From Solirubrobacteraceae bacterium (GTDB lineage: Bacteria > Actinomycetota > Thermoleophilia > Solirubrobacterales > Solirubrobacteraceae): a DNA stretch of 64,000 nt. The notes under the pieces were generated by a model that saw only the letters and a list, made by a program, of their open reading frames with translations, ran no database searches and was not told the origin of the DNA. Positions within the stretch are counted from its first letter, which is position 1. Every line of letters begins with the position of its first letter. The DNA lies in the NCBI GenBank assembly GCA_036489875.1, contig DASXEZ010000160.1, forward strand, positions 17,106-81,105. Reading direction: 5' to 3'. Both the position numbers and the translations under genes were made by a program. Below, one piece after another: positions 6,020-49,673 of the stretch.

Positions 6020-6043
6020 GCCACGCGCGGCAGATCTAAGGGC

Positions 6044-6166
6044 TCAGTGGTGGTGGCCGCCGGGGACGACCAGCGCCAGCACCACGCCCGCGATCACCGC
6101 GAGCACGATCAGCATCGCGACGCGGCGCAGGTAGGGGCGATATTCGGGTGGTAGCCGGTTGAGCAT
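6044..6166 (-). CDS. possible 40-aa single-helix membrane peptide ending in HHH
   Basis: ATG at 6166 gives MLNRLPPEYRPYLRRVAMLIVLAVIAGVVLALVVPGGHHH. Third positions are almost all G/C. It is the only coding-looking part of ORF 6044..6355. Confidence 0.3.
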   Translation of the reverse strand: MLNRLPPEYRPYLRRVAMLIVLAVIAGVVLALVVPGGHHH

Positions 6167-6206
6167 CGATCGGGGCGCCGCTTGCGGGATCATCCCAGGC
6201 CGGCCG

Positions 6207-7193: not shown

Positions 7194-7975
7194 AGCCCGC
7201 AGGCGTGAAGCTCGCCGCCGCCAGCATCACCAAGCGCTTCGCCGACGGAGTCGAGGCGCTCGCCGGGGTCTCGATCGAGCTGCGCGAGGGAGAGTTCTGC
7301 TCGATCGTGGGGCCGAGCGGCTGCGGCAAATCGACGCTGCTGGGGATCCTCGCAGGCCTGATCGCGCCAACCTCCGGCAGCGTCCTTCTGGACGGCGAGG
7401 TGCCCCCCGGCGGACTGCTCGGGCGGATCGGCTACATGCCCCAGCGCGACCTGCTCATGCAGTGGCGCACGACGCTTGAGAACGCGACCGTCGGCCTCGA
7501 GCTCGCCGGCGTGGCGCGCGCGGAGGCGCAGCAGCGCGCGCTCGCGCAGATTCCTCGTTTCGGGCTCGCCGGCTTCGAGCACCGCCGCCCCTCGGCGCTT
7601 TCGGGTGGCATGCGCCAGCGCGCGGCGCTGCTTCGCACCTTCCTCGCCGGGCGCGACGTGCTGCTCCTCGACGAGCCCTTCGGGTCCCTCGACGCGCTCA
7701 CGCGCGAGGCGATGCAGGAGTGGCTGCTCGGCGTCTGGGAGACCGATCGCAAGACGATCCTCCTGGTCACCCACGACGTCGAGGAGGCCGTGTTCCTCTC
7801 CGACCGCGTGTATGTGATGTCCGGTCGCCCGGGCGCGATCCGCGCAACGCTCGAGGTGCCGATGGCGCGGCCGCGCTCGCTCGAGCTGACCGCGACCGTC
7901 CAGTTCGCCGCGCTGCGCGAGGAGCTGCTGGCGCCGCTTCGCGAAGAGGCCCGAGCGGCGCTGGGGGCGGTATGA
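7190..7975 (+). CDS. ABC transporter ATP-binding protein (NitT/TauT family)
   Basis: GTG 7190 overlaps the upstream stop (GTGA). Walker A GPSGCGKST, signature LSGGMRQR, Walker B LLLDEPFGSLD. Confidence 0.9.
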   Translation: MKPAGVKLAAASITKRFADGVEALAGVSIELREGEFCSIVGPSGCGKSTLLGILAGLIAPTSGSVLLDGEVPPGGLLGRIGYMPQRDLLMQWRTTLENATVGLELAGVARAEAQQRALAQIPRFGLAGFEHRRPSALSGGMRQRAALLRTFLAGRDVLLLDEPFGSLDALTREAMQEWLLGVWETDRKTILLVTHDVEEAVFLSDRVYVMSGRPGAIRATLEVPMARPRSLELTATVQFAALREELLAPLREEARAALGAV

Positions 7976-35446: not shown

Positions 35447-36529
35447 TCAGCCCGCGTTGTCACGCAAGCGCCGCAGCGCCATGGCGAGCGCGAGACGGTG
35501 GCGGCCGGGCGCCGGTCGTACCGAGAAGCCGAGGGTTTGTTCAGCGTGGTCGAGGCGCTGGCCCATCGAGCTGTGATGCATGTGCATTGTCCGTGCGGCG
35601 AGCCGAATCGATTCCGCTTCGCACAGCGCTCGCAGGGCATCGAGAGTGACCGTACCGGTGCGCTCGGAGGCCAGCTGATCCAGGGCTATGACGTCCGGGA
35701 TCTGGGAGATCGCCTCGGTCGGGACATACTCCGCGACGGTCGCCAGGCCGCCAAGGTCGTCCCAAAAGACGACGCCCGGATCGCGCTCCGAGCACCCTGC
35801 GCCCGTGCGGCTCGCGCCATCGGCGAGGCGTGCGGCGAGGCGGGCCGCCTGCCACGATCGCCATGCCTCACCTGCCGGCACGCGCGGGCCGACCCCCACT
35901 CGAACGCCGGCTGCCAGATGCTTGAGCCTGACTCGCAGGTCCTCATCGCCGAAGACGATTACGGCGAGCACATCGCCGATGGGACTCTTGCCCAGCGGCC
36001 GCGCGCAGCGTCCAAGGACCTCCGTGGCCCGCCCAGCCACGACCAGGGCACGGATGGGGCTCGTAGGCACGAGCCCGAACAGTTGGATGGCTCGCATCCG
36101 ATCCGCCTCGTCGGTGTCGGGGCTGAGCATCAGCTCGACGAGGGCTGGGTCGCCCGCCCGCGGCTGAACGGCCTCGCGCTTGCGGGCGAGCGCGACCGCG
36201 GTCGCGAAACGCTCGAGTACAAGCTCGTCGAGCGCCAGCGGTGGCCCGTCTCGCTCGAGCCAGACGTCTCCACCGCCGTCCACCGGTTGCCCGACAGCAG
36301 TCTCAGGTCTTTGCAACTCCAGGCGCTGGCCGTCGACGCTAATGCGCAGGACCACAGTGCCATCGGGGTCGCTGACACCGATCGGGCATTCGCTGAACAG
36401 GGCGGCCGACCGGACGAGATCCGCCAAGCTAAGCCGTTCCTGCGCCAGCTTGTCGAATAGCTCGATGATCCGCACTGCGCTCTCGGCTACGTCGTCTAAC
36501 CCCGACAGCCGCTGGAGTAGGGCCCGCAT
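35447..36529 (-). CDS. PucR/CdaR-family transcriptional regulator
   Basis: The C-terminal HTH ARTMHMHHSSMGQRLDHAEQTLGFSV is typical of PucR_C. Full 360-aa ORF. Confidence 0.8.
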   Translation of the reverse strand: MRALLQRLSGLDDVAESAVRIIELFDKLAQERLSLADLVRSAALFSECPIGVSDPDGTVVLRISVDGQRLELQRPETAVGQPVDGGGDVWLERDGPPLALDELVLERFATAVALARKREAVQPRAGDPALVELMLSPDTDEADRMRAIQLFGLVPTSPIRALVVAGRATEVLGRCARPLGKSPIGDVLAVIVFGDEDLRVRLKHLAAGVRVGVGPRVPAGEAWRSWQAARLAARLADGASRTGAGCSERDPGVVFWDDLGGLATVAEYVPTEAISQIPDVIALDQLASERTGTVTLDALRALCEAESIRLAARTMHMHHSSMGQRLDHAEQTLGFSVRPAPGRHRLALAMALRRLRDNAG

Positions 36530-36728
36530 TCAGTCAGGATACGCCGACCCATGGAACCGGGATGCAGGCCCCGAATCTCTGGCGTACGAGCGAATCTCGC
36601 CATGCGACGCCGCCTTGGAACCAGAGCTCCCAGGGTCCATGCACCTAGGAGCGGGACGCGGTCGTCGGCGATGGGGGCATCCGCAAGATGGGCGGCTGGC
36701 GACGAGCGATGACGTCGCGCTTCGCGCG

Positions 36729-37022
36729 TCAGGAGAGGGGAGTGCCGTTCCTGCCGTTCTGCCAGGGGGTGCCCGTCGGGCCAGCGCCGTTAGCGGGCTG
36801 TCCGCCTCGCCCGCCCTTCCCGACGGTGCCGACCGCCGCACCGCCATCCCCGCCTGCGCCGTTGCCGCCGTTGCCGCCCGGGACGCGCTCGCCCGTTGCT
36901 GGCGCACGGGCTGCTCCGTTTCCGCCGGTCCCCGCGTTTCCGCCGGTGCGCCCGTCAGTGCGGTTCCCGGGCCCGCTCGGCGAGCCGCACTCCCTAGAAC
37001 CCTGCAGGCGTGACGAGAACTG
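36729..37022 (-). pseudogene. start-less Gly-rich reading frame (remnant of a GGX-repeat gene?)
   Basis: A 98-codon open frame bounded by TAG (37023-37025) and TGA (36729-36731) has no ATG/GTG/TTG. It reads ...GPGNRTDGRTGGNAGTGGNGAA...GGNGGNGAGGDGGAAVGTVGKGGRGGQPANGAGPTG..., the same composition as the 866-aa GGX protein 1 kb away. Confidence 0.3.
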
Positions 37023-37740
37023 CTAGGAACTCGGTGTAGAGGCTGGGATAGCCGTCACCAGGGCCGTTCTGGCTGTCGTCGCCCCCCGGCCCCAATCCTC
37101 TGCAGCACGCTCATGCCGCTGATCACAGTGCCGAAGGGGGTGTAGTCCGGAGCCAGCGTGGTGTTCTGCCAGGTGAAGAAGAACTGGCTGCCGTTGGTGT
37201 TCGGTCCGGCATTGGCCATGGCGAGCGTGCCGGCCGGGTAGGTGGCCCCGGTGAGGGTCTCGTCGTTGAATTCGTAGCCGGGACCGCCCGATCCGGTGCC
37301 GGTCGGGTCGCCGCACTGGAGCACGAAGATCCCTTGGGTGGTGAGCCGGTGGCAGTGGGTGAGATTGAAGTAGCCGCGGCTTGCCAGGAAGCGGAACGAA
37401 GTGGTGGTACACGGCGGCGCGGCGGTCAGCATCCGGACAGTGATGATGCCTCGCGTGGTGATGAAGGTGACGTTGAAAGGCTGCCCTCCTGTGTCGCATT
37501 GAACACGGGGATGCCCTTGAAGCTATCCGCGAGGACCGACGCTTGGAAGCCGCACGGGTTGGTGACTGTGGGCGTGGCGGCAGCCGTCCGCGCACGGAGG
37601 CCGGGAGCATTGAGGTAGGGACGGTGCACGGGGCTACTGAGGGCACCGGACGCGCTCGCCCCGGCGACTGTGACCGCAGCGGTCACAGTGGCAGTAGCGA
37701 GCAACCAACGAAAACGGCGTTCACCGAACATGGCGGGCAA
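36994..37740 (-). pseudogene. secreted cyclophilin-type peptidyl-prolyl isomerase, disrupted by two frameshifts (or two assembly errors)
   Basis: The signal-peptide ORF 37426..37740 has to jump frame near 37480-37495 to reach FNVTFITTRGIITVRMLTAAPPCTTTSFRFLASRGYFNLTHCHRL...QCGDPTGTGSGGPGY...LAMANAGPNTNGSQFFF...FGTV (ORF 37055..37432). A second shift at the C6 run (37082-37087) is needed to recover a cyclophilin-like tail ...GDGYPSLYTEF. Confidence 0.6.
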
Positions 37741-37968
37741 CCTCTCTCTGAGGGCGGCCCCGATTGTGACCCTTGTGGGTCCGCCGAATCAAGGCGTGTG
37801 ACGAACGTGTTTCGCCGCATAGCAAGCGACCTGCGGCTCGGCGGCTCGGCGGCTCGCGACAAGGTTGTCCCGCTCAGCAATCGGGCAGTGCGTGACGCAG
37901 TCCGGCCACCGGCGTCGTCGAGTGCCGCAACGTTCGAGCGAGGCAGCCTCCCTGTTCTGGGTGGAGCG

Positions 37969-40569
37969 TCAGGAGGGTGCGCCGCTTCCGCCAGCCCCCC
38001 CGGGGGTACCCGCCGGCCCAGCGCCGGCACCGGCCGCCCCGCCCTGTCCCCCGGTCCCGCCTGCGCCGCCGGCGCCGCCGGCGCCGCCCGCGCCGCCGTC
38101 GCCGTTCGCGCCTGGGGATCCGGCCGCGCTGCCAGCTGTTCCGCCGTCGCCGGCGGCTCCGCCGTTGCCGCCGGCTCCGCCGTTCTGTCCGCCTGCGCCG
38201 CCCGCGCCACCGTCGCCACCCGCACCTGCGTTCCCGCTGATGCTGCCCCCATTCCCGCCGGCGCCTCCGCTGCCCCCGCTGCCACCGGTGCCGCCGGCGC
38301 CGTCAGTCCCGCCCGCGGCGCCGGTGCCGCCGGCGCCGCCGTCGCCACCGTCACCGAAGTTGCCGCCGTTACCACCGTGTCCGCCGCCGCCGCCGTCGGT
38401 CCCGGGTGCGGTTGCTCCGAATCCAGCCCCGCCGTCCCCACCGTTTCCGCCGCCGGGCGCGGGTTGACCGCCGGCGCCGGTGGACCCTCCGGTCCCGCCA
38501 ATGCCGCCGGTACCGGAGGGTCCACCAGCACCGGCGCTGCCGGGCGTCCCGCCGTTGCCGCCATTACCGCCGTTGCCGCCGTCGGGTTTGGCGGCGGTTC
38601 CGGCCAACCCGTTCCCGCCGTTTCCTCCGATACCGGCGGTGCCGCCGTTGCCGCCAGTACCGCCCACACCATTAGCCCCGGCTCCGCCTGAATTGCCGCC
38701 GCTGCCGCCCGTGCCGCCGCTGCCACCCGAGGCGCCGTTGCCCCCGTTGCCGCCGTTGGGGTCAGTGGCGGTTCCACCCAACCCGTCGCCGCCGTTCCCG
38801 CCCTCACCGGCGCCGCCGCCGGCGCCGCCGCCGCCGCCGGCACCGGCAGTCATACCGGCTCCGGCCGCGCCACCCTCACCGCCGCTGCCGCCGTTGCCGC
38901 CTGCGCCCCCGGGGGCACCGTCGCCACTGGCGCCGTTGTCGACTCCGGCCTCTCCCGTGCCGCCGTCGCCGCCGTTCGCCCCGGTCCCGCCTGCGCCACC
39001 ACGGCCGCCCGTTGCGCCGCGACCGCCAGTTCCGCCAGTGCCGCCGTCGCCGCCAGCGGCGCCGGCGGTCGCTGCTGGGTAGCCGGCGCCCCCGGTGCCG
39101 CCAGTCCCGCCGGTGGCGGCCTGACCAGCGACACCGGTCGTCCCAGCGCTCGCACCAGCCCCGCCAGCTGCTCCACCCATGCCGCCGCTGCCCGGCGTCC
39201 CAGGATCGCCGCCCGTGCCGCCCTCGCCGCCATTGGGGGTATCAGCTGTCCCTGCCCCACCGGTGCCGCCGCGCCCGCCCACACCGGCCGTACCGCCAGC
39301 GCCGCCGCTACCGCCGTTGCCAGCAGCGCCGCCGTTGACGCCGTGGATCGCCACGCCGCCGCTGCCGCCGGCGCCGCCGTGCCCGCCCATCTCGCCCGCG
39401 CCGCCGGTGCCGCCGGTGCCCGCTCCGCTCGTTCCGGCGACGCCGGTGGCGCCGTTGCCGCCGGCACCCCCGGCCCCCCCGTTGGCCCCCGGACCGCCGT
39501 TCCCACCGGTGCCACCAGCGCCGGCGGCGCCACCGAGCGTGGTTGATGAAGACCCGGCGCCGCCATTGCCGCCCACCCCGCCGGCGGAGGCGTTTCCAGT
39601 TTGTCCTGCGGTGCCGCCCGCTCCGGCGAGGCCACCCGCACCGCTGCTTCCGGGGTTCCCGCCGTTCCCGCCGTTGCCGCCCGTGACGTCGTCGCCGGTT
39701 CCTAGCGCACCGGCTGCTCCGTTCCCGCCGGCTCCGGCATTTCCGCCGGCACCGCCATTAGCGCCCGCGCCGCCGGCGCCGCCGGCGCCGCCGTTACCGC
39801 CGGCGCCGCCGGATTGGCTGGCTGTGCCTCCTGCACCACCAGCGCCGCCGTTACCGCCGCGGCCACCGTTCGCCCCGGTGCCGCCAGGGCCGCCAGGGCC
39901 GCCGGCGCCGCCGGCGCCACCGGAACCAGTGCCGGCCGCGCCGTTTCCGCCGGCCCCGCCGCTGCCGCCGGCAGCAGTGTTCACCACACCACGCAATCCG
40001 AGCACGAGGAGATGCGTTCCGGGATTCCCGCCTGCGCCGCCGCTCGATCCTGACTGTCCCGGTGTGCCGCCGGCAGCGCCGCTGCCGCCGGCGCCTCCGT
40101 TGCCGGCCTGGGATCCAAACTCAGCGTTCCCCCCGTTCCCGCCGGCGGTCCCGGCGTCGGCCGGGTTGTTGCTGCTCCACCCGTTCCCCCCGTTTCCGCC
40201 GCGGCCGGTGAGTAGTCCGCCGGTGCCGCCGTTGCCCCCGGGCACACCAGGAATGGTGCTTGACCAGCCGTTCCCGCCGTTGCCGGCGATCAGGCCACCG
40301 CTCTGACCATTCGGATGCTGAGCGGTGCCGTTGGCCCCGTTGCAAACGAGGCCACAGATGCTCGTCGTCGATGGCTGTGCCAACGCAACGAATCCCGTGG
40401 CGTTCGCGGGAGACGCACTCACCGCACAAGGCACCGCCCAAAGCAACACGCCGCCAAGGACGACGAATGCCACACGGAACGGTCGCCGACCACGCAGGCG
40501 ACCTCCACGTCGGGCCTTGCTCACCGAATCAAATCGAAAATCATCAGCGAACCTGCGATCTCGTGACAT
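37969..40569 (-). CDS. 866-aa secreted Gly-Gly-X repeat protein (PGRS-like composition, no PE domain)
   Basis: Uninterrupted 2.6-kb ORF. ATG 40569 is preceded by aggaaggctgagg. The signal peptide is RPFRVAFVVLGGVLLWAVPCAVSASPANA. The remainder is almost entirely GGN/GGA/GGT/GGS triplets (GGNGGNGGTGG, GGAGGNGGAGG, GLIAGNGGNGWSS). The opposite-strand Pro-rich ORFs are broken into pieces. Confidence 0.75.
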   Translation of the reverse strand: MSRDRRFADDFRFDSVSKARRGGRLRGRRPFRVAFVVLGGVLLWAVPCAVSASPANATGFVALAQPSTTSICGLVCNGANGTAQHPNGQSGGLIAGNGGNGWSSTIPGVPGGNGGTGGLLTGRGGNGGNGWSSNNPADAGTAGGNGGNAEFGSQAGNGGAGGSGAAGGTPGQSGSSGGAGGNPGTHLLVLGLRGVVNTAAGGSGGAGGNGAAGTGSGGAGGAGGPGGPGGTGANGGRGGNGGAGGAGGTASQSGGAGGNGGAGGAGGAGANGGAGGNAGAGGNGAAGALGTGDDVTGGNGGNGGNPGSSGAGGLAGAGGTAGQTGNASAGGVGGNGGAGSSSTTLGGAAGAGGTGGNGGPGANGGAGGAGGNGATGVAGTSGAGTGGTGGAGEMGGHGGAGGSGGVAIHGVNGGAAGNGGSGGAGGTAGVGGRGGTGGAGTADTPNGGEGGTGGDPGTPGSGGMGGAAGGAGASAGTTGVAGQAATGGTGGTGGAGYPAATAGAAGGDGGTGGTGGRGATGGRGGAGGTGANGGDGGTGEAGVDNGASGDGAPGGAGGNGGSGGEGGAAGAGMTAGAGGGGGAGGGAGEGGNGGDGLGGTATDPNGGNGGNGASGGSGGTGGSGGNSGGAGANGVGGTGGNGGTAGIGGNGGNGLAGTAAKPDGGNGGNGGNGGTPGSAGAGGPSGTGGIGGTGGSTGAGGQPAPGGGNGGDGGAGFGATAPGTDGGGGGHGGNGGNFGDGGDGGAGGTGAAGGTDGAGGTGGSGGSGGAGGNGGSISGNAGAGGDGGAGGAGGQNGGAGGNGGAAGDGGTAGSAAGSPGANGDGGAGGAGGAGGAGGTGGQGGAAGAGAGPAGTPGGAGGSGAPS
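37990..40330 (-). repeat. GGX-codon low-complexity array inside the 866-aa gene
   Basis: About 2.3 kb of ggc-ggc-nnn type periodicity (read as gcc-gcc on the + strand). This is degenerate triplet periodicity rather than long exact repeats. Confidence 0.8.
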
Positions 40570-40776
40570 CCTCAGCCTTCCTGCCTCAGACGCCGGCAAG
40601 CGCCCGGAACTCACGGAAGGGCAACCTAAACGAACGCCCGAGGCACTGCAACGCTCGCGGAAGTGCCGCGGTAGCGAGTGGGGCTCGGTCCTGCGCCCGA
40701 CATCGGGTCTGTTAACCGACGCGACGGGCGCTCCATCGCGATCCCGCGCCAGGTCGGCTCGAGTGCGTAAGCGCCC

Positions 40777-40819
40777 GCAGCAGGCCGGCCGCCCCTAGGT
40801 GGGTCGGCCGGCTGGCTGC
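40777..40819 (-). terminator. 15-bp GC-rich hairpin between the Asn/Gly-repeat gene and the GGX gene
   Basis: gcagcaggccggccg (40777-40791) pairs with cggccggctggctgc (40805-40819), with one mismatch and one G-U pair, around a 13-nt loop. It lies 94 nt downstream of the stop at 40913. No U-tract. Confidence 0.35.
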
Positions 40820-40912
40820 TTCGGTGCTTCTCGTGACGTGAGGCCTTATCGGAAGCCCCTAGTCATCTCCTCTCTTGCCAATTTCAGAACGATTCGACTG
40901 CGTTGATTCGGC

Positions 40913-42406
40913 TCAGCAGGGACTCGGGGCGCACTTGTCCTTCTGGCATGACGACGCGCACTGCTGACCGCAGCCCGGAGACTGGTGCCCGCAGCCCGGT
41001 GACTGCTGTCCGCATCCGTTGGTGTCGCACTGCTGCTGGCAGTCGCAGTTGCACGACGGCTCGCAGCTGTTGCCGCACTGCTGCTGGCAGTTGCACTGGC
41101 ATGTCGGCGGTGGCGGCGGTGGCGATGGCGGGTTGTTGCACGGGTAGTTGCCGCCGCTGTTGCTGTTGCCGCCGTTGCTGTTGCCGCCGCTAGCGGTGTT
41201 CGAGGCCGTGCCTCCGTTGCCGCCGTTGGCGTTGACCGTGCCGCCATTGGCAGACGACGGGCCGCTAGAGACCGCGGTGTTGCCACCGCGCGTGTTCTGC
41301 CCGACCGCGTCACCGTTGAGGAACACGAGGTTGCCGCTGTTGGACTGGCCGCCGTTGGCGGTGTTGCCGTTTCCTCCGCCGCCACCGTTGGCGTTGTTGT
41401 CGCCCTGCGTGATGCTTTGCGGTCCTTGGTTGTTGGTGGAGTCTGCGGCGTTGTTGGTGGCGGTGCCGCCGTTGCCGCCGTTGGCGTTGACGGTGCCGCC
41501 GTTGGCGTTTGAGGATCCGCTCGTCACGACGGTGTCGCCACCGCTCGTGCCGTGCTTGTGGTGGTGCTTGTGCTGCGAGTACGTCGACTCCGAGTCCTGG
41601 CAGCCGCAATTCTGCTGGTGACCCTTGTCGCCGGTCGATACCGCGTCACCGTTCAGGAAGACGGCGTTGCCGCTGTTGGACTGGCCGCCGTTGGCGGTGT
41701 TGCCGTTTCCTCCGCCGCCACCGTTGGCGTTGTTGTCGCCCTGCGTGGCGCCTTGCTGTCCTTGGTTGTTGTCCTCGTTCTTGCAGCCGCAACCGGGCGA
41801 GCCACTTCCACCGCTGTCGCCTGCGGTGTTCGAGGCGGTGCCGCCGTTGCCGCCGTTGGCGTTGACGGTGCCGCCGTTGGCGTTTGAGGATCCGCTCGAG
41901 ACGGCGGTGCTGCCGCCCTTCGCGTTCCCGCCCAGACTGACTGAGTCGCCGTTCAGCGCGACAATGTTGCCGCTGTTGGACTGGCCGCCGTTGGCGGTGT
42001 TGCCGTTTCCTCCGCCGCCACCGTTGGCGTTGTTGTCGCCCTGCGTGCCGCCATCGACTCCGGTCGGGCTGGTCGCGCCGTTCGTGGCCGTGCCGCCGTT
42101 GCCGCCGTTGTCATTGGTGGTCCCGCCATTGGCTGAGGAGGATCCGCTCGAGACGGTGGTGTTGCCACCGCTGGCGTTCCCGCCCAGGCCGACCGCGTCG
42201 CCGTTGAGGACGGCGATGTTGCCGCTGTTGGACTGACCGCCGTTGGCGGTGTTGCCGTTACCGCCGCCGCCGCCGTTGGCGGTGTTGGCGCCCTGCGTCA
42301 AGGCTCCCGCATTCCCAGACACGGGCGGCTGGGCCAGTGCTGAGGGTGCGCAAGCTCCCGCGATTGCGAGCACGCCTAGCGTGATCGCCGCGAAGTGTCG
42401 TCTCAT
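40913..42406 (-). CDS. 497-aa secreted Asn/Gly-rich four-repeat protein with His-rich insert and Cys-rich C-terminal tail
   Basis: ATG start and signal peptide MRRHFAAITLGVLAIAGACAPSALA/QPP. Four repeats follow: TQGDNNANGGGGGNGNTANGGQSNSGN.V.LNGD...VSSGSSNANGGTVNANGGNGGTA. Linkers contain GCGC, CGC and HKHHHKH. The last 77 aa contain 17 Cys (CQCNCQQQCGNSCEPSCNCDCQQQC...). Confidence 0.8.
   Translation of the reverse strand: MRRHFAAITLGVLAIAGACAPSALAQPPVSGNAGALTQGANTANGGGGGNGNTANGGQSNSGNIAVLNGDAVGLGGNASGGNTTVSSGSSSANGGTTNDNGGNGGTATNGATSPTGVDGGTQGDNNANGGGGGNGNTANGGQSNSGNIVALNGDSVSLGGNAKGGSTAVSSGSSNANGGTVNANGGNGGTASNTAGDSGGSGSPGCGCKNEDNNQGQQGATQGDNNANGGGGGNGNTANGGQSNSGNAVFLNGDAVSTGDKGHQQNCGCQDSESTYSQHKHHHKHGTSGGDTVVTSGSSNANGGTVNANGGNGGTATNNAADSTNNQGPQSITQGDNNANGGGGGNGNTANGGQSNSGNLVFLNGDAVGQNTRGGNTAVSSGPSSANGGTVNANGGNGGTASNTASGGNSNGGNSNSGGNYPCNNPPSPPPPPPTCQCNCQQQCGNSCEPSCNCDCQQQCDTNGCGQQSPGCGHQSPGCGQQCASSCQKDKCAPSPC
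41331..42298 (-). repeat. intragenic tandem repeats with 100%-identical DNA cores
   Basis: The 80-bp core ttgccgctgttggactggccgccgttggcggtgttgccgtttcctccgccgccaccgttggcgttgttgtcgccctgcgt occurs identically at 41331-41410, 41667-41746 and 41967-42046, with a diverged copy at 42219-42298. A second 65-bp block is identical at 41459-41523 and 41834-41898. Confidence 0.9.
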
Positions 42407-42495
42407 GACACCTGCTCACTTTCATCTCGTTCAAGAAGATCCGCCGGGCAGTAGGAGGCCCCCGACGGCCGGCCTGGTCAGACCCCGCGGACGGG

Positions 42496-43893
42496 TTAAC
42501 CAGGTCGCTCGAGCGGTGAATGAAAGGCGTGACGCGCGAAGCCAGCCGGAACGACGGGCAGGCCGGAAACCCGCGTCAGCGCCAGTGCGAACAAGAAGAG
42601 CGAAAGCAGAGCGGCGATCCCGGTGCCGTTGGCGCCGAGTGATCGCACGAGCCCGCCGAGACCGCCGGTGCCCAGCGACAGAACTGGCTGGGCCGTCGGG
42701 CGGACGTTGTCTGCGCCGTTGCTTGCGGGCGTAGCGCGCACCGCGGACGGCGGCAACGCGATCACGTGGAGGGGACCAATCAGGCTTGCCGTCGGTGTCT
42801 CAAGTCCTGCTGGTGCGGTTCCGAGCGGAATAGACACACCGACAGGCCTAGGGGCGTCGCCGTCGCGACGATCGGAACCCGCATGCGGCGGTGTCGGAAA
42901 CGAGACGCTCGGTGGGCTAGTCATCACTGCTGAAGAAGCCGGACCGGCGCCACGCGAGAGGTCAGCGGGTGGGGATGCGGGAGAGGCTTCGGGCGAGACG
43001 GCTCCGAGTGCGATACCGGGGGAGCTCGCCGAACCTTCGGGGGTGCGGGTAGCCATCGATCCGGTGGCGCTTCCGCTGATCGAGCCGATCGCGGACTTCG
43101 CGGTACCGGCATCGAGAGTGATCGACTTGGCCGCAGAGAGGTGCGTGACAAATCCGCTAACGGGTGGGATGGACACCGCGGCGTGGGCGGTGGTGGTCAC
43201 GGTCTGGGTCGGAGTCGAGGTGACGGAACCAATCGAGGAGTTGGCTGTGTCCCGAACCTTCGTCGTGATGGAAGTGGCGGCAGCGATCGCGCGGGTCGGC
43301 GCGACCTGTCCCACGCTCGGGGCGCCACCCTGCGGCACGAGCGACTGAACTCTCGTCGGTGTGACCACCCGAGGAACTGAAAGCTGCTTCACCGGCGAAA
43401 CGACCGGATGCGCGGATGCTGCGCTCGACGCGATGGCGGAGCCTGCCGCTACCGCCGCCGGCCGCAGCGTCTTCGGAGCGGTCGCGGCCGCGAGGGCGGG
43501 TCGGTCCGGGGGAGGACCAACTGCTGGCACTGGGGACGTCACGACCGCTGGAGCGGAACCTGTCGTCTGCGAACTCGCCACCGCGATGACCTGCGAGCTC
43601 GGAACGGCATCGGAAGTCGGGGCGGCGTCGGACGTCTGTGTCGTGCCAAGTGAAGAAGCGCCGCTGTCACCGGACGCGACGGTTGAACCCGTCGCCGGGA
43701 CCACGTCGGAGACAACCGTGGTCGGTTGGGGGGCAGCCACGATGCTCTGATTCGGGAGCGACCCGGCGGCCGCCGCTCCGGGGGCGCCGAAGGCGCAGAT
43801 GGCCAACAGCGTGACTGCACACACACCGCCGGCACAGAGAGACCGACGACTGATCGCGATGGAGCGCGCGAGGCGCTCGTCCGCGAGGTGCAT
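42496..43893 (-). CDS. ~465-aa Ser/Thr/Ala/Pro/Val-rich envelope protein with hydrophobic segments at both ends
   Basis: ORF 42496..43962 has TTG at 43962 and ATGs at 43944 and 43893. The N-terminal anchor/signal is SLCAGGVCAVTLLAICAFGAPGAAAAG. About 380 aa of mucin-like low complexity follow. A C-terminal hydrophobic stretch GIAALLSLFLFALALT is followed by a ~25-aa tail. Confidence 0.6.
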   Translation of the reverse strand: MHLADERLARSIAISRRSLCAGGVCAVTLLAICAFGAPGAAAAGSLPNQSIVAAPQPTTVVSDVVPATGSTVASGDSGASSLGTTQTSDAAPTSDAVPSSQVIAVASSQTTGSAPAVVTSPVPAVGPPPDRPALAAATAPKTLRPAAVAAGSAIASSAASAHPVVSPVKQLSVPRVVTPTRVQSLVPQGGAPSVGQVAPTRAIAAATSITTKVRDTANSSIGSVTSTPTQTVTTTAHAAVSIPPVSGFVTHLSAAKSITLDAGTAKSAIGSISGSATGSMATRTPEGSASSPGIALGAVSPEASPASPPADLSRGAGPASSAVMTSPPSVSFPTPPHAGSDRRDGDAPRPVGVSIPLGTAPAGLETPTASLIGPLHVIALPPSAVRATPASNGADNVRPTAQPVLSLGTGGLGGLVRSLGANGTGIAALLSLFLFALALTRVSGLPVVPAGFARHAFHSPLERPG

Positions 43894-44155
43894 TTCGGTC
43901 CCAGTCGTAACTGGCGGCCTGTAGGAGTCCCCCGACTCAACCATGCTTGGGCGTATACCCAAACCTCCGCAAAGCTAACAAAGGCTTTACAAACCTACCC
44001 AGGTTCCCCGCACAATCCATCCTTTTTGCGACCGCAGACCAAGCCGCTACCGCCGCCGACGCGGCTGATGCCGGCGCCTCGGTTGGGCTCTTGGGAGAGC
44101 GGGTACGGGAGCGCGATCGGTGGCTCGACGCGCGCGAGGAAAGGATGGGATTCCA

Positions 44156-46279
44156 ATGGCTGCAAACGGCTCAGGCCGCGGCAGGAGTGTTCGTTACGGA
44201 GACGAGGAGATCAAGCGGGGTGGCGGCGGCGAGACGCACCAAGTCGCCGATGGCGACGGCACCCAGCCGCTGACGACTCAACAGGGAGTTATCGTCGCCG
44301 ATGACCAGAATAGTTTGCGCATCGGCGAACGCGGGCCAGCGGCCTTGGAGGACTTTCACCTTCGCGAGAAGATCTTCCACTTCGACCATGAGCGGATTCC
44401 CGAGCGCGTGGTGCACGCGCGCGGCTACGGCGCCCACGGCCACTTCGAGAACTACGCTCCGCTAGGCGAATTCACGCGCGCGGACCTCTTCCAGCGTCGT
44501 GGCGAGCGTACCCCGGTATTCGTCCGCTTCTCCACCGTGGCGGGCAACAAGGGCTCGGCGGACCTGGCGCGCGACGTCCGCGGCTTCGCCGTGAAGTTCT
44601 ACACACAGGAGGGCAATTGGGATCTTGTCGGCAACAACATCCCGGTGTTCTTCATCCAGGATCCGATCAAATTCCCGGACCTGGTTCACGCGGCCAAGGA
44701 CGAGCCCGATCGAGGCTTCCCGCAGGCACAGACCGCTCACGACAACTTCTGGGACTTCGTGTCGCTGATGCCAGAGTCCACACACATGCTGATGTGGATC
44801 ATGTCGGACCGCGCGATACCCCGATCGTTTCGGTTCATGGAGGGATTCGGCGTCCACACGTTTCGTTTCGTCAATGACCGAGGTCGCTCGACGTTCGTGA
44901 AGTTCCACTGGAAGCCGCTGGCAGGCATGCAGTCGGTGGTATGGAACGAGGCCGTGAAGATCAACGGCGCCGACCCGGACTTTCATCGTCGCGACCTTTG
45001 GGATGCGATCCAGCAAGGCTCCTTCCCGGAATGGGAGCTGGGTCTGCAGTTGTTCGATGAGGACTTCGCTGACCGGTTCGAGTTCGACGTCCTCGACCCG
45101 ACGAAACTCATTCCCGAGGAGCAGGTGCCGATCCGGCGCGTCGGAAAGCTCGTCTTGGACCGCCTCGTCGACAATTTCTTCGCCGAGACCGAGCAGGTCG
45201 CTTTCTGTACGCAGAACATCGTGCCGGGGGTCGACTTCAGCAACGATCCGCTGCTGCAGGGGCGCAACTTCTCCTACCTTGACACCCAGGTAAAGCGCCT
45301 CGGAGGTCCCAACTTCACGCATATTCCCGTGAACGCTCCCAAATGTCCGATGGCGCACTTCCAACAGGACGGCCATATGGCGATGAGCAATCCCACCACG
45401 CGGGCGAACTACGAGCCCAACTCCTGGAGCGGTGCCGAGGGCGGCCCGCGGGAGGACCCGCAGGGCTTCACCAGCTTCGCCGCCGAGGAGGCCGGAGCCA
45501 AGCGCCGGCTGCGCCCCGAGGGTTTCTCCGATCACTACAGCCAGGCTCGACAGTTCTACATCAGCCAGACCGATCCCGAGCGTCGCCATATCGCCGACGC
45601 CTTTGTGTTCGAGCTGAGCAAGTGCGAACGCGCGGACATTCGTGAGCGGATGGTGGCTGGGCTGCGTAACGTCGACGACGACCTTGCCCGTGAGGTGGCC
45701 GACGGGTTGGGCCTGGACCGGCTGCCACGTGCTCTTCCCGCGGCCCGGCGGCCACGACAGGATCTGCCGCCGTCGGCGGCCCTCAGCATCCTCGCCAATC
45801 CGCCCGAGAGCTTTGCCGGGCGCAAGCTTGGTGTCGTCGTCACCGATGGGTTCGACGCGCGTTTGCTGGCGGGCTTACGAGCTGCCGCGAAGAAGGAGGG
45901 CGCCACCCTCGAGGTGATCGCCCCCGTGATCGCTGGGGCGCGTCCCCGCGACGGTGCCCAGGTGGCCGCCGATCAGACGATGGCCGGAGCGCCGTCGGTG
46001 CTCTTCGATGCTGTCGTCCTGCTCACGTCGACTGAGCACGCGGACGTCCTCACCGAGGACTCGGTCGTCCGGGAGTTCCTGGCCGATGCCTTCACGCACG
46101 GCAAGTTCATTGGCTACAGCAGTGAGGCGGGCCCAGTCCTTGAGGCCGCCAGGATCGCGGTGTCCGCGGCGCAAGGGGTTGTCGAGCTCAGTAACCGCGC
46201 GGCCGCGGGATCGTTCCTCGAGCGATGCCGGGAGCTGCGTGCGTGGGATCGCGAGGCCGTCGACGTGGTGGTCGCATAG
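44156..46279 (+). CDS. katE: large-subunit monofunctional catalase (HPII type)
   Basis: gaggaaagga precedes ATG 44156. [27 protein letters not shown] and [10 protein letters not shown] are present, plus the C-terminal flavodoxin/DJ-1-like domain typical of HPII catalases. Confidence 0.95.
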
Positions 46280-46376
46280 GGCGGCCCTCGTCAGCCCGAT
46301 GGTGCCGCGCTGGAGACGCGGCCACGAGCGGTCTCGTGCAGTTCGCCGCGAGTGGTCGCGCAGGGCGCGCGGGCGA

Positions 46377-47123
46377 TCAGTTGCGGGCGTAACGCAGGAA
46401 AAGCTGGCTGTCGTGGACGAGCGCTCGAATGAGTTGCAGGCCCAAGCTGAGCGGGACGGACGGTCCTTCGGTCACGGCGTGCTCTCCGCCACCCACCAGC
46501 GTGGGCGCGAGGGTGAGGAAGAGCTCATCGACGAGGTCAGCGGCGATCAGGCTGTTGAAGAGGAGGGGTCCGCCTTCGCAAAGCAGACTGCGCACGTCGT
46601 GGTGCTCGCGCAGCGACAGAAGCACGGATGACAGATCCGCGCCGCCGCCCTCGAGACGATGCACGTGCAGCCGCGCCTCGCAGTCCGGCGGCTCCGGCGC
46701 GGAGACGGGCAGGTACAAGGCGACTTCGGAGTCCGGATCACGAAACAGCGGGATGTCGTAGGGAATCGCCCCGGTCCGGCTGATGACCACGGCCAGTGGG
46801 CGAGGCGACATGCCGGCCGCCTCGCGGATGCCGGCGATTTGCTCCTGCCGCACCAGCGGGCCGTAGCGCTCCACGCGCAACGTCCCGGTGCCGACGCTGA
46901 CCGCGTCAACCTGGCTGCGCAGGAGATGGAAGGCGGCACGGTCGCTCGGATCCGAGAGCGGACTCGTGCGACCCCCGACCGTCGCCTTGCCGTCGAGGCT
47001 CGCGACGAAATTGCAGACCACATAGGGTCGGTCGCGGGGGGCCTGCGCACCGAGTTCCAGGTTCGCGAACAGCTGCTCGGGTACCTCAGGCACGCCGGGC
47101 GGGATCAGCTGTTCGAAGAGCAT
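46377..47123 (-). CDS. RibD C-terminal domain / dihydrofolate-reductase-family protein
   Basis: VVCNFVASLDGKATVGGRTSPLSDPSDRAAFHLLRSQVDAVSVGTGT...LLCEGGPLLFNSL fits the pyrimidine reductase-like fold. Confidence 0.85.
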   Translation of the reverse strand: MLFEQLIPPGVPEVPEQLFANLELGAQAPRDRPYVVCNFVASLDGKATVGGRTSPLSDPSDRAAFHLLRSQVDAVSVGTGTLRVERYGPLVRQEQIAGIREAAGMSPRPLAVVISRTGAIPYDIPLFRDPDSEVALYLPVSAPEPPDCEARLHVHRLEGGGADLSSVLLSLREHHDVRSLLCEGGPLLFNSLIAADLVDELFLTLAPTLVGGGEHAVTEGPSVPLSLGLQLIRALVHDSQLFLRYARN

Positions 47124-47148
47124 CGGTTGGCAAGGCTATCGACGGGGG

Positions 47149-47646
47149 GTGGGCGTGACCGGTAATGCAGACTTCACTCGCCTGACCCGCAGGCTCGACT
47201 ATCCGATGTTCGTGGTCACCGTCCGCGAGGGAGAGGAGCGCGACGGCTGCCTCATCGGGTTTGCTACCCAGTGCAGCATCCACCCCCCGCGCTTCCTCGC
47301 TTGTCTGTCCGTGAAGAACCGCACGTGGCGGATCGCTCGTGACGCCCGGTCGCTTGCCGTGCACCTCCTGCGCGCCGACCAGGCTGCGCTAGCACGGCTC
47401 TTCGGCGGCGAGACCGGCGATGACGTCGACAAGTTTGCGCACTGCGCCTGGCACGACGGACCGGACGGTCTCCCGATCCTCGACGAATGTGACGCGTGGT
47501 TTGAGGGGATCGTTCTCGTTCGCTACGAGCTCGGCGACCACGTTGGCTTTTTGCTCGAGCCCGCCGTCGCCCACGACGGGGGCAACGAACGCCCACCCCT
47601 CTTCTTCAGCCAGATCAAGTCGCTTGATCCGGGCCATCCGGCCTAG
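47149..47646 (+). CDS. flavin reductase-like domain protein
   Basis: YPMFVVTVREGEERDGCLIGFATQCSIHPPRF...GDHVGFLLEP fits the flavin reductase (FMN-binding split barrel) pattern. GTG start. Confidence 0.85.
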   Translation: MGVTGNADFTRLTRRLDYPMFVVTVREGEERDGCLIGFATQCSIHPPRFLACLSVKNRTWRIARDARSLAVHLLRADQAALARLFGGETGDDVDKFAHCAWHDGPDGLPILDECDAWFEGIVLVRYELGDHVGFLLEPAVAHDGGNERPPLFFSQIKSLDPGHPA

Positions 47647-47714
47647 ATCGATCGGGCGCGACCGCTAGCGCGACCGTGCGCTCGCCAGATGGGCTCGGCT
47701 GTCGGGTGCGCGCG

Positions 47715-49673
47715 TCATTCCGAGCCCGTAAAGCGAAGGCGCCCGAACTCGACGTTCGTGAGGCAGGCGCGCGGCGGGAGATGGAACGCAAGTTCCCGGA
47801 CCACTCCGGTGAACTGCAGAGGCAGTAGTTCGCCGCCGCGACCGCGGCCCCAGAAGTGCGTCACGGTGGCGAAGCCGAGACCGCGACGCTTCGCCAGGAG
47901 CTTCACGGAGATCCACGAGTTCGCCGGCATGCGAAAACGCACCTGAATCGCATAAGCGAGATCGGGTGGGAGGGAGACCATCCGCTGGGGGCGTGCGAGT
48001 GGTACCTGCAGCCAAGAGCGCGTCCCGGCGGCACACGCGAGAGATCGACTGCGTCGCGGTGCCGAAGCCGAATCTGAGCCGAGACGATCGCTGGCCCTCG
48101 CCCGCTCGATCGATCCGCGTCGGTCGGCTGCGAAGCGAACCGGAACCAGCCGGCCGCGGCGGGCGATCACGTAGATCCGCTTCGCGATCTTGTCGACACG
48201 CAGCCTGGGGTTGAACAGCGCGAAGAAATGGGCGTAGGTCGTGTAGGGCCACAGCGGCGTTGGCAGAACCTGCTTTGGCACCTTGAGATCAACGAGCACG
48301 GGTTCGGTGCCGGTGATCTTCCGCAGCCGCCTGTCGCTGGCGAGATAGGTGTGCACGTAGGCGCTGTTCTGCCGAGGCTGCCACGAGGCCCGCGACATCG
48401 CGCTCAGCGAGGTCAGCAGCAGCACGGCGTAGGCCGCCGCTGCCGCCACGCCGACAACAGCCAGCGCGCCGCTGGAAGGCCGGCGAAGGGCGAGCACGCG
48501 GAGACTGCGGCTCGCTGAGGAGCGGCTGCGTTGTCCGCCCCACCGCGGACTGATCGCAAGCGCCGCGAGGATCAAGAACATGAACTGCAACGACTGTTGG
48601 TAATAGATCACGTGGCCAATGCTGACCCCGAACTCCCTGATCCGTGTGAGCGCGACCGGCAGCATCGTGAGTAGGAACACCAGAGCGAACGCCAGCAGGC
48701 AGCGCCAGGCGCGCGGGCGCAGGTAGAGCGTTACCGCCACGGCCGCCACCACGACGAGCGTCGCTGCGACGATCGCGGTGGTGTGGCGCCCTGGGTGCGC
48801 CGGATACTTGATGCCGACCAGCGCGGGTATGAAGGTCTGGAAGAGCGCAATCTCGATGTAGTGCGCCACCGAGGAAAGCGAGGGTCGCGCCGCCGCCGCG
48901 TAGTAGTTGGCGTAGTAGTTGATGATCGCCGCGGCGTCGAGAACGACCAAGCCGACCCATACCCAACGCTCGCGCCACAGGGTGTGCAACCAGCCCCGTG
49001 GGCTGAGATCGCGCTCGAGCACGAGAAACGTGATCGCGGCGAGGTAGGCGGGGAAGAGGATCGCCGTCTCGTAGTCGAGCAGCGAGAGCGTGTAGGACAC
49101 CAAGCACGCAGCCAGCAGCGTGCCGGACCGGGACTCGCGCCAGCGCAGATAGCAACCCAGCGCGAGCAACATGAAGAGTGTCGAAGGGAGGATGTTCGCC
49201 GTCGCCGTCCACCAGTTGAGGAGGCGGATCACGAAGATCGACTGTCCGAACAGCAGCGTCATCACGAGCGCGATCCAGCCGTTCCCGAGGATCCAGCGCA
49301 CAACCATCGCGAAGGCGATCAGCGCGCCGGCGTACATCACCAGCTCGAAGGCGTGGGCAAGGACGAAGCTGCCCGGAGCGACCGCCACGAGGACCGTGTC
49401 AAGGACGCGGCTGATCGGAGAGAAGTGCTCGAAGAGGTTCTCGCGCAGGTAGGTGAGGCTCAGGCTTTGCGTGCGCGCTTGGCCCAAGAACAAGAAGTCA
49501 TCGACGAAGAAGAACGTGTAGCTCGTCAGCGCTGCCGCGCAGGCGACCTGCACCAGCACCGACGCTCCCCAGAGCCAGGCCGGCGGTGTCCGCCAGCGCT
49601 GCCGGCGATCGTGAGCGCCGGTCGCACCCGCCGGGCCCTTGGGATCGATCGGCAACTGCGCGGCCCGGCTCAC
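47715..49673 (-). CDS. 652-aa polytopic membrane protein, GT-C-fold glycosyltransferase-like, with ~200-aa C-terminal soluble domain
   Basis: The GTG start overlaps the upstream stop (GTGA). At least 10 hydrophobic segments. An acidic FFFVDDFLFLG motif follows the first TM helix directly, as in PMT/ArnT-type enzymes. The family call is inferred. Confidence 0.7.
   Translation of the reverse strand: MSRAAQLPIDPKGPAGATGAHDRRQRWRTPPAWLWGASVLVQVACAAALTSYTFFFVDDFLFLGQARTQSLSLTYLRENLFEHFSPISRVLDTVLVAVAPGSFVLAHAFELVMYAGALIAFAMVVRWILGNGWIALVMTLLFGQSIFVIRLLNWWTATANILPSTLFMLLALGCYLRWRESRSGTLLAACLVSYTLSLLDYETAILFPAYLAAITFLVLERDLSPRGWLHTLWRERWVWVGLVVLDAAAIINYYANYYAAAARPSLSSVAHYIEIALFQTFIPALVGIKYPAHPGRHTTAIVAATLVVVAAVAVTLYLRPRAWRCLLAFALVFLLTMLPVALTRIREFGVSIGHVIYYQQSLQFMFLILAALAISPRWGGQRSRSSASRSLRVLALRRPSSGALAVVGVAAAAAYAVLLLTSLSAMSRASWQPRQNSAYVHTYLASDRRLRKITGTEPVLVDLKVPKQVLPTPLWPYTTYAHFFALFNPRLRVDKIAKRIYVIARRGRLVPVRFAADRRGSIERARASDRLGSDSASAPRRSRSLACAAGTRSWLQVPLARPQRMVSLPPDLAYAIQVRFRMPANSWISVKLLAKRRGLGFATVTHFWGRGRGGELLPLQFTGVVRELAFHLPPRACLTNVEFGRLRFTGSE

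Follow-up and report, generated by a model that had tools for sequence, protein, structure and literature searches.

The described systems closest in character to the locus reported here are curli, the chaplins of Streptomyces, RTX beta-rolls, PE_PGRS proteins and the InaZ-type ice-nucleation proteins. Curli subunits (CsgA/CsgB) are secreted, rich in Gly, Asn, Gln, Ser and Ala, and made of imperfect tandem repeats of about 22 aa, with a dedicated partner encoded alongside. Chaplins are secreted actinobacterial surface proteins with a hydrophobic domain of about 40 aa, of which anchored long forms work with short secreted forms. RTX proteins have nonapeptide periodicity (GGxGxDxUx), short strands between Gly-Gly turns and, at the C-terminus, a signal for type-I secretion. 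InaZ, from the outer membrane of Gram-negative bacteria, has a 16-residue period with TxT and SxT ladders. Thermoleophilia (Solirubrobacterales and relatives) abound in soil. We know of no characterised surface proteins from these actinobacteria; literature searches on Solirubrobacter amyloid, Solirubrobacterales S-layers and Thermoleophilia glycine-rich repeat proteins found nothing relevant.

The repeat gene described here lies in a window of 64,000 nucleotides (the whole stretch of DNA analysed) and is a genuine gene of a Solirubrobacteraceae (Thermoleophilia, Actinomycetota) genome (GC3 = 0.85). By sequence analysis its product is Sec-exported and consists of four 84-112-aa repeats rich in Asn, Gly, Ser, Thr and Ala, followed by a low-complexity tail of Cys, Gln and Pro. 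Its content of Asn (16.3%), Gly (24.1%) and Cys (4.4%) exceeds that of 16 other window genes (2.2%, 8.6% and 1.1%, respectively); Gly, Asn, Ser and Gln together make up 58% of the protein and aliphatic or aromatic residues 8%. Full-length orthologues were found in two Solirubrobacteraceae MAGs (L001 and L002). The start, signal peptide and stop of the sense ORF are conserved across the three genomes, the signal peptide being almost unvarying, and signal peptides also begin the full-length distant relatives. Cys19 is conserved, but we rejected the idea that it marks a lipoprotein, as its contexts (AGAC, GGAC and AGTC) are unlike a lipobox and an AxA cleavage site comes after it. A hairpin comparable to the possible terminator of the repeat gene was also present downstream of the L001 orthologue. 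Coordinates of all features are collected in the table.

Table. Features of the repeat-gene locus (positions in the window; residues refer to the repeat protein).
Feature	Position	Strand	Remarks
GC-rich hairpin, 19-nt arms	40777..40819	-	possible terminator without U-tract; ~95 nt past the repeat-gene stop codon
CDS of repeat protein	40913..42406	-	497 aa plus stop; no other ORF spans the region without interruption
Cys/Gln/Pro-rich low-complexity tail, residues 421-497	40916..41146	-	17 Cys; short tandem repeats, period 21 and 24
PPSPPPPPP hinge, residues 426-434	41105-41131	-	
Repeat 4, residues 332-417	41156..41413	-	motif and unit alignment
Repeat 3, residues 220-331	41414..41749	-	mid-repeat loop with second CGC pair (41597-41611) and His-rich insert (41549-41581)
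Repeat 2, residues 120-219	41750..42049	-	linker holds first CGC pair (GCGCK, 41780-41794)
Repeat 1, residues 36-119	42050..42301	-	motif and unit alignment
82-bp exact tract	41330..41411 (repeat 4), 41666-41747 (repeat 3), 41966-42047 (repeat 2)	.	
Diverged fourth copy of 82-bp tract	42218-42299 (repeat 1)		7/82 mismatches
65-bp exact tract	41459..41523 and 41834-41898	.	two identical copies
Sec-type signal peptide, residues 1-25 (MRRHFAAITLGVLAIAGACAPSALA)	42332..42406	-	predicted from sequence; putative cleavage after ALA
Intercistronic region, two conserved hairpins	42407..42505	-	first hairpin starts in the partner's last codons (CCT GGN TAR)
Conserved partner gene	42496..43893	-	longest ORF to 43962; ATG at 43893 matches 465-aa database product

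Repeat-unit boundaries were set by the QG(D/A)NxANGG motif and by alignment of the units (alignment A3). The initial annotation had described four tandem protein repeats, and four were found, with start-to-start spacings of 336, 300 and 252 bp. The three cores that it reported as identical are so at every base, but they are 82 bp long rather than 80 bp and start at 41330, 41666 and 41966. The identity of the 65-bp blocks at 41459 and 41834 held, and the CGC pairs (residues 206-208 and 267-269), the YSQHKHHHKHG insert (residues 276-286), the PPSPPPPPP hinge and the 17 Cys in the last 77 residues were all present as it had listed them. The identity of the three copies exceeds chance: they showed 0 mismatches in 82 bp, whereas the 90 in-register bases that flank them had 38-48 (Fisher p from 3e-13 to 9e-18), the flank figure being due in part to loss of register in non-homologous linkers.

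Gene conversion appears the best reading of these base-identical tracts, because repeats are more alike within the genome (83-92% identity) than to their positional orthologues in L001 and L002 (72-82%), and because both orthologues hold exact tracts of their own (85-89 bp) at other positions. These comparisons support the ongoing gene conversion or concerted evolution proposed at the outset, in which short conversion tracts would copy parts of one repeat over another and could leave the 82-bp and 65-bp identities. The accompanying suggestion of repeat-number variation was borne out among relatives, which range from ~1-2 up to at least 9 repeats, but not at closer range: no population-level polymorphism was seen in two assemblies of the source organism or in the three closest orthologues, since the assemblies are identical and the closest orthologues all have four repeats.

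Homology searches point to a small family from soil actinobacteria (Thermoleophilia) that curated databases do not describe. An exhaustive phmmer search against 1.84 billion representatives gave 6 matches. A repeat profile built from alignment A3, which all four units of the window protein match, retrieved 63 database proteins at E<=1e-3 (best 5e-39), all unnamed and without Pfam domains, the named sources being Solirubrobacteraceae and Thermoleophilaceae. A word-indexed search with the whole protein returned 0 matches, likely owing to its low-complexity words, which would have taken up all 8000 candidate places, whereas the exhaustive and profile searches found relatives; metagenome-contig scans, a viral-contig scan and plasmid tblastn yielded none. 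No meaningful match came from Pfam and NCBIfam scans that covered the repeat protein and its orthologues, 41 relatives and six partner proteins, and the repeat profile had 0 PDB matches at E<=10. The initial annotation's view that no described family has this architecture is supported by these scans, and the known families that it named as possible homes (RTX, ice-nucleation and chaplin) did not take the protein in. Exact-sequence look-ups of the 497-aa repeat product and of a 462-aa product had no database match; database gene calls for both low-complexity genes use other start codons (for the repeat gene in JGI, an internal TTG). Protein databases hold too few members of the family, because gene callers truncate the repeat gene and its partner.

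The family repeat reads (V)xQGDNxA(N/T)GGxGGxAxGGxGGxAx(S/T)GNxxxxNGN(A/S)xxxGG, a variable loop, then GGxTxxxSG(D/S)AxGGxGGxAxAxGGxGGxAxN, and most relatives have Asp in the Gly-Gly turns where the window protein has Asn. Alignment A3 comprises 22 repeat units and has 20 invariant columns, with between-subfamily identity of just 40-49%. The repeats may form the beta-solenoid that the initial annotation suggested. AlphaFold2 gave low mean pLDDT values of 44.8 for the full-length protein and 49.7 for repeats 1-2, both models showing short strands only and both computed from shallow input alignments (39-41 rows). Foldseek of the repeats 1-2 model against the PDB returned 0 matches, and hhalign of the first against the second half of the repeat found a weak AxGGxGGxA match only (probability 34%), which does not demonstrate duplication within the unit. 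From the invariance of so many columns across divergent units we infer a defined beta-rich fold, with very short strands (xAx) between Gly-Gly turns, rather than an effect of composition alone.

Cysteines were counted in 65 family proteins. CxC pairs hold 106 of the 167 Cys (6 expected by shuffling), and 46 of the 53 pairs are CGC, located in loops or linkers. CGC occurs in 26 of the 65 proteins, and 63% of all Cys in the 65 are in CxC pairs. By this census the hallmark of the family is a Cys-Gly-Cys pair in variable, often His/Lys-rich loops or linkers, very often one pair each. The CGC of the repeat-3 loop is kept in all three orthologues, and the L002 orthologue has one CGC only in its repeat region. 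The YSQHKHHHKHG insert is missing from the L001 and L002 orthologues and so is not a conserved part of the protein; as judged from these genomes it is specific to the source lineage, and His/Lys-rich loops were found again elsewhere in the family. The tail is 22% Cys, with spacings CQC, CNC, CDC and CQQQC. Orthologue tails share its composition (QQQPPPPC units) without conservation of sequence, and similar tails were found in another lineage (P0037). Conserved in composition, built of short tandem units and recurrent, the tail looks less like a folded domain than like a module for cross-linking. It is confined to subfamilies and most relatives end differently, which means that the family as a whole cannot have cross-linking through the tail as its core function. 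Mature proteins contain 21 (window), 19 (L002) and 26 (L001) Cys, and with such odd numbers a single molecule of the window or L002 protein must leave one Cys or more without an internal partner.

In each of the ten loci analysed (the window, L001-L006 and L008-L010), a partner-type gene lies directly upstream of the repeat gene and is read from the same strand. The initial annotation mentioned neither this partner nor the family-wide occurrence of CGC. In the window the partner product runs from a signal peptide through a long region rich in Ala, Ser, Thr, Pro and Val to a C-terminal hydrophobic helix, after which a short basic tail ends ...HAFHSPLERPG. In all ten partners a signal peptide leads into an extended low-complexity region, and a C-terminal membrane helix precedes the ...LE(R/Q)PG end; they are predicted type-I membrane proteins with low-complexity ectodomains, and the six partner proteins scanned had no Pfam or NCBIfam match. 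The intercistronic hairpins were identified by per-sequence folding. RNAalifold on a 10-sequence MAFFT alignment missed them because the alignment was out of structural register; folding energy was unexceptional (z +0.33), and Rfam returned sub-threshold noise only, no family reaching its gathering score. Past the gene pair, the window and the 9 other loci carry unrelated housekeeping genes, which offer no hint of function. In the window a catalase gene adjoins, an adjacency not conserved at the other loci. The next gene downstream (37969-40614, an 881-aa ORF) matches PGRS (E 3e-9).

The repeat protein is probably a surface structural protein. Slightly below an even chance, in our estimate, is a model in which the repeat region forms a beta-rich cell-surface or matrix scaffold and the membrane-anchored, wall-spanning partner holds or organises it. 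Outside the cytoplasm, where conditions are oxidising, intermolecular disulfides of the CGC loops and of the Cys/Gln/Pro tail would link the protein into a polymer, and soft metals may be bound as well, by clusters of thiol and imidazole groups in the loops. Against this scaffold stand the low-confidence AlphaFold2 models, the lack of an annotated homologue and an aliphatic/aromatic content compatible with disorder. A more far-reaching version, which we consider possible but doubtful, is a Thermoleophilia-specific two-component envelope system, not previously described, that would build a new surface fibre or sheath. It would pair the tail-anchored '...LERPG' membrane protein with a secreted Asn/Asp-Gly repeat protein whose fold has no solved relative; CGC/His sites would provide redox-switchable or metal-dependent cross-links, and how much of each protein is made relative to the other would be governed by the structured RNA between the two genes.

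CxC pairs and clusters of His accord with metal binding no less than with disulfide cross-linking, the two readings that the initial annotation gave for the Cys/His-rich parts. The protein could be an extracellular metal-binding or buffering protein, in which CGC with His/Lys, the HKHHHKH insert and the CxC tail would coordinate Cu(I), Zn, Ni or Cd, the GGDGGDA turns of Asp-rich relatives would bind Ca2+, and the repeats would serve as a mere display scaffold. We judge this unlikely. The strong over-representation of CxC, the family-wide recurrence of His-rich loops, the Cys content and spacings of the tail and the Asp in the turns of most relatives argue for it, as does the adjoining catalase gene, though its adjacency is not conserved at the other loci. 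No metallothionein or metal-chaperone model in Pfam or NCBIfam matched, however; the tail is Pro/Gln-rich and its sequence unconserved, the orthologues do without the His insert, no conserved metal transporter or regulator was present in the loci examined, and secreted actinobacterial cysteines are usually oxidised, which also counts against it. Less likely still, the protein is intrinsically disordered and acts outside the cell as a hydrophilic 'glue' or hydrogel rich in Asn, Gly and Ser, or it forms prion-like amyloid and has no fixed fold as a monomer; composition would then decide its function. The low AlphaFold2 confidence, the 58% of Gly, Asn, Ser and Gln beside 8% hydrophobic residues, and the variable low-complexity linkers and tails are what such a protein would give. 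Conservation is position-specific, however, with the invariant columns noted above and SSGPSSANGGTVNANGGNGG almost unchanged in orthologues, a pattern that selection for composition by itself would not be expected to leave; low pLDDT from such shallow alignments is weak evidence, and there is no similarity to curli CsgA.

It is very improbable that the locus is an artefact, whether through tracts created by assembly collapse or mis-joining or because antisense Pro/Leu-rich ORFs (41148-41621 and 41625-42236) are the true gene. The source is apparently a metagenome-assembled genome, and the initial annotation had asked that collapse be ruled out. A second assembly record, contig Ga0376660_0000823 of JGI metagenome 3300036790, is 99.992% identical to window positions 36496-48765 without gaps (12.3 kb) and identical across the repeat gene, the lone mismatch being at position 44398, inside the catalase gene. 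The contig names of the orthologue MAGs (k141_...) also point to an assembly k-mer longer than the exact tracts, and the orthologues of other MAGs show their own tracts at different positions. GC3 of the antisense ORFs is high (0.86-0.88) because the antisense and sense frames have the third codon position in common. The antisense ORFs were rejected: their frame is interrupted, and against the orthologues the sense frame, whose start, signal peptide and stop are conserved, has a better synonymous to non-synonymous ratio (111:166) than any antisense frame (90:200 at best).

With the scaffold as the preferred reading, this conserved gene pair offers a clean candidate for an envelope or matrix component peculiar to the lineage. 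Because the repeat is without a solved relative and was beyond AlphaFold2, solving its structure by experiment could bring to light a new beta-rich repeat fold. Cys-Gly-Cys loops across a whole family are unusual, and they are testable as a redox cross-link or a metal site; the locus is a compact natural case of intragenic gene conversion with sharply bounded tracts.

Among known systems, InaZ-type proteins share long Gly/Ser/Thr/Ala/Asn-rich repeat arrays homogenised by concerted evolution; Ice_nucleation had no Pfam match, and the repeat protein has only four long units. PE_PGRS proteins likewise have Gly-doublet-rich low-complexity repeats and belong to an actinobacterium. The repeat protein was unmatched by PGRS (PF21526) at E<=1 in the scan that matched the neighbouring 881-aa ORF, and it differs in its long, well-defined, Asn-rich unit and lack of a PE domain. 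The tail recalls metallothioneins, keratin-associated proteins, SPRR and glutenins in its CxC and CxxxC spacings, Pro and Gln, a likeness in composition only; no metallothionein model of Pfam or NCBIfam matched, and this tail belongs to a bacterial protein that is secreted, and its sequence is not conserved among orthologues. Short strands between Gly-Gly turns would resemble the RTX beta-roll, and the Asp in the turns of relatives (GGDGGDA) suggests Ca2+ binding. RTX (HemolysinCabind) gave no Pfam match and the repeat profile no PDB chain at E<=10; the repeat protein is without nonapeptide periodicity, the window protein has Asn rather than Asp, and export is by a conserved N-terminal Sec signal peptide instead of a C-terminal signal. 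Like chaplins, it is predicted to be a secreted actinobacterial surface protein, with a short SGNxxQ/xGN motif, a Cys pair and an anchored companion. No chaplin domain (Chaplin/DUF320) was matched in Pfam at E<=1-10, and it has neither the hydrophobic character of the short chaplin domain nor a sortase signal. Curli are alike in secretion, composition, imperfect tandem repeats and an adjacent dedicated partner, and the Q-G-x-N-x-A motif recalls the curli Q-x-G-x-G-N-x-A. Homology to curli was not detected (no Pfam match at E<=10 for the target and 41 relatives; hhalign probability 0.04% against a CsgA sequence), and no CsgG/E/F-like genes were among the Pfam-annotated neighbours in the window and 9 other loci. 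The host is also an actinobacterium, presumed monoderm. In contrast to curli, the partner is a membrane-anchored low-complexity protein and not a paralogue, and the repeat protein is built of units of 84-112 aa, with conserved CGC loops.

The 497-aa Asn/Gly repeat protein of the window (the target) is the founding example there of a Thermoleophilia family that is small and uncharacterised, whose genes are strictly linked to a partner gene and whose hallmark is Cys-Gly-Cys (CGC). Its signal peptide (MRRHFAAITLGVLAIAGACAPSALA) is followed by four repeats, with starts spaced 336, 300 and 252 bp apart; two CGC pairs, an insert (YSQHKHHHKHG) and a hinge (PPSPPPPPP) are also present, and the C-terminal 77 residues hold 17 Cys. 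By exact-repeat scan, an 82-bp tract is the same at every base in the copies starting at 41330, 41666 and 41966 and differs at 7 positions in a fourth copy at 42218; the 41459 and 41834 copies of a 65-bp tract are identical. The scan confirmed the description of the gene in the initial annotation, except that the strand was corrected to minus and the tract length from 80 to 82 bp. Tract edges are sharp (0 mismatches in 82 bases versus 38-48 in 90 flanking in-register bases, p <= 3e-13, non-homologous linkers supplying part of the contrast). The composition is extreme given a 68% G+C genome: Asn, Gly and Cys make up 16.3%, 24% and 4.4% of the target versus 2.2%, 8.6% and 1.1% in the window's other genes.

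Coordinates of the repeat gene and of neighbouring or overlapping features (window positions unless a locus is named)
Feature	Position	Strand	Description
Target ORF	40913-42406	minus	single uninterrupted ORF, 497 aa
Antisense Pro/Leu-rich or Pro-rich ORFs	41148-41621, 41625-42236, 39179-40306	plus	overlap Gly/Asn-rich genes, high GC3
Intercistronic RNA structure	42407-42505; L001 5808-5908; L002 9900-10001; also L003, L005, L009, L010	minus (window)	from folding
PGRS-like gene	37969-40614	minus	881-aa Gly/Ala/Asn-rich ORF, signal peptide, next downstream of target

The repeat gene is a real finding. Two antisense Pro/Leu-rich ORFs over the target likewise show high GC3, because their third codon position is common to the sense frame; such ORFs over Gly/Asn-rich genes could mislead gene callers. 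They were ruled out as the true gene: the sense frame is the sole continuous frame across the target, its start, signal peptide and stop are conserved in three genomes, and its synonymous:non-synonymous ratio against orthologues is the best (111:166; the leading antisense frame reaches 90:200). An artefact is unlikely. The NCBI record gives a Solirubrobacteraceae bacterium MAG as its source, and JGI metagenome 3300036790 contig Ga0376660_0000823 (79 kb) matches window 36496-48765 without gaps at 99.992% identity, the sole mismatch lying in the catalase gene; the repeat structure is thus exactly the same in a second assembly record, with which reads may be shared. Public annotations truncate both target and partner (window 42301 and 42496-43962; 6001-6270 and 6465-7853 at L007, a further locus). 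In JGI the target starts at an internal TTG (window 42301), giving 462 aa and losing the signal peptide; for the partner, the JGI and NCBI gene calls span 89-113 aa, but the call in a Logan assembly spans 465 aa. As a result, the family is under-represented and fragmented in protein databases.

GTDB was searched with one genome per species, and two orthologues were found in other Solirubrobacteraceae MAGs (L001, 511 aa; L002, 501 aa; 63-65% identity), both with the target's signal peptide, four repeats and Cys/Gln/Pro tail. Exhaustive phmmer against 1.84 billion representative proteins returned six matches only. A profile built from 22 single repeat units (A3) matched 63 proteins in 5.8 billion clusters, all 'hypothetical' and without a Pfam domain, one of them from a Thermoleophilaceae MAG. 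Most relatives span 120-265 aa and contain a single repeat or two; P0001 has 5 repeats and L006 at least 9. Two cassette copies occur in GCA_963803475.1 (L006 1769-6393 and L008 793-5408), encoding repeat proteins of at least 7-9 units with Gly/Pro/Gln-rich linkers (GPQGPPQGG...). The family unit reads (V)xQGDNxA(N/T)GGxGGxAxGGxGGxAx(S/T)GNxxxxNGN(A/S)xxxGG, a variable loop, then GGxTxxxSG(D/S)AxGGxGGxAxAxGGxGGxAxN, with AxGGxGGxA the sole motif common to its two halves. Across A3 units just 40-49% identical, 20 columns are invariant.

Over a 114-nt segment, the window repeats are 83-92% identical to one another versus 72-82% to their positional orthologues, and L001 and L002 carry exact tracts of their own, 85 and 89 bp long, which lie elsewhere and are shared by other repeat pairs. 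This within-genome likeness and these lineage-specific tracts point to gene conversion or unequal exchange in short events that recurred within each lineage, bearing out the gene conversion initially proposed. L002 has an entire linker in duplicate, one copy between repeats 2 and 3 and the other between 3 and 4. The repeat-number variation suggested at the same time holds across the family; the number is the same in three close orthologues and both assemblies, so that no population-level length variation was seen.

Directly upstream, and on the same strand, lies the partner, whose product has a signal peptide and a long low-complexity ectodomain, followed by a C-terminal hydrophobic helix, basic residues and the terminus ...(S)PLE(R/Q)PG. 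This arrangement was found at all 10 loci examined (window, L001-L006, L008-L010), and the partner matched no curated Pfam or NCBIfam family. Genes outside the pair vary (catalase and cyclophilin in the window; ABC transporters, MoxR/VWA or acyl-CoA genes elsewhere), which marks partner and repeat gene as the functional unit. The L006 partner holds Gly/Asn-rich segments (GGNGGNGSAGNLISVSGGG) resembling the repeat, a hint at a possible role of the partner as template or nucleator of the repeat protein.

The spacer between the two genes (85-89 nt) folds into two hairpins, a structure conserved across the loci tabulated. In the first, a long stem with closing CCAGG has the partner's last codons (CCT GGN TAR; Pro-Gly-stop) as its 5' arm, and within it sits a small GC hairpin that shows sequence covariation from locus to locus; the second is CCGNCGGGG...CCCGGCGG. 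The Pro codon CCT is rare at 68% GC, and its use suggests that the RNA itself is under constraint. The region matched no Rfam family, and its folding z-score was unremarkable. A GC-rich inverted repeat ~95 nt past the target stop codon (40777-40819; 19-nt arms, 84% complementary), with a similar hairpin at L001, probably acts as a terminator that lacks a U-tract, and would end the two-gene unit. The PGRS-like ORF beyond it matches Pfam PGRS PF21526 (E 3e-9), a domain familiar mainly from the PE_PGRS proteins of mycobacteria; in this Solirubrobacteraceae genome it occurs without a PE domain. Three consecutive minus-strand genes thus all encode secreted low-complexity proteins. In JGI the PGRS-like gene is called at only 535 aa.

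In 65 family proteins, CxC pairs hold 106 of 167 Cys (shuffling expects 6), and 46 of the 53 pairs are CGC, placed in the mid-repeat loop or inter-repeat linker, often amid His, Lys and Asp. All three orthologues retain the target's mid-loop CGC, and two of them its linker CGC. Linkers of the metagenome members P0056 and P0007 contain up to five tandem KDCGCKDKGRSYDKGHDKR-like units, arrays of a CGC plus His/Lys module. Short tandem repeats occur in the target's tail DNA at 40960-41014 and 41026-41090 (period 21, GCGQQSP units; period 24, CNCQQQC units), and orthologue tails are built from other units ((QQQQPPPPCNCG)x3 in L001, (PPPPPPCDKCGSCDQ)x2 in L002), indicating rapid turnover by slippage; such changing units would be typical of a composition-selected module.

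Most likely, the target would be a Sec-exported, beta-rich repeat scaffold, which the membrane-anchored, wall-spanning partner keeps or organises at the cell surface and which is covalently cross-linked via its CGC loops and, in its own subfamily, via the Cys/Gln/Pro tail as well. Once mature, the target and its L002 orthologue have an odd number of Cys (21 and 19), which would allow intermolecular bonds. In the main rival reading, thiol and imidazole clusters bind metal and Asp-rich relatives bind Ca2+; Asp replaces the target's Asn in most relatives, and the target's His insert is absent from both L001 and L002.

A disordered hydrogel or prion-like amyloid is the second rival. AlphaFold2 gave a mean pLDDT of 44.8 for the full-length target (41-row alignment) and 49.7 for repeats 1-2 (39 rows), only the SGNxxxLNG...GGxTxVSS hairpin coming near 70, and hydrophobic content is 8%; disorder or folding upon assembly therefore stay live alternatives. 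Against disorder, position-specific conservation argues for a defined structure. Outside the signal peptide, the only secondary structure in the low-confidence models is short strands, and Foldseek returned no match. The beta-solenoid initially suggested is a possible fold, on which these results bear neither way. For the scaffold and its partner, a genuinely new two-component envelope system is possible and, on balance, doubtful.

No Pfam or NCBIfam model matched the target, its orthologues or 41 relatives, including Curlin_rpt, Chaplin, HemolysinCabind, PGRS, Ice_nucleation and metallothionein models, and the repeat profile matched no PDB chain at E<=10. The initial view that no described family has this architecture was thus upheld, and with gene conversion its main inferences proved largely right. 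Tool-chosen search patterns found no relatives in viral contigs, plasmids or JGI metagenome contigs, and a literature search found nothing relevant. Aligned to curli CsgA by hhalign, the repeat profile reached 0.04% probability. We rate the target as belonging to a known general kind, the secreted low-complexity repeat surface proteins that evolve in concert.
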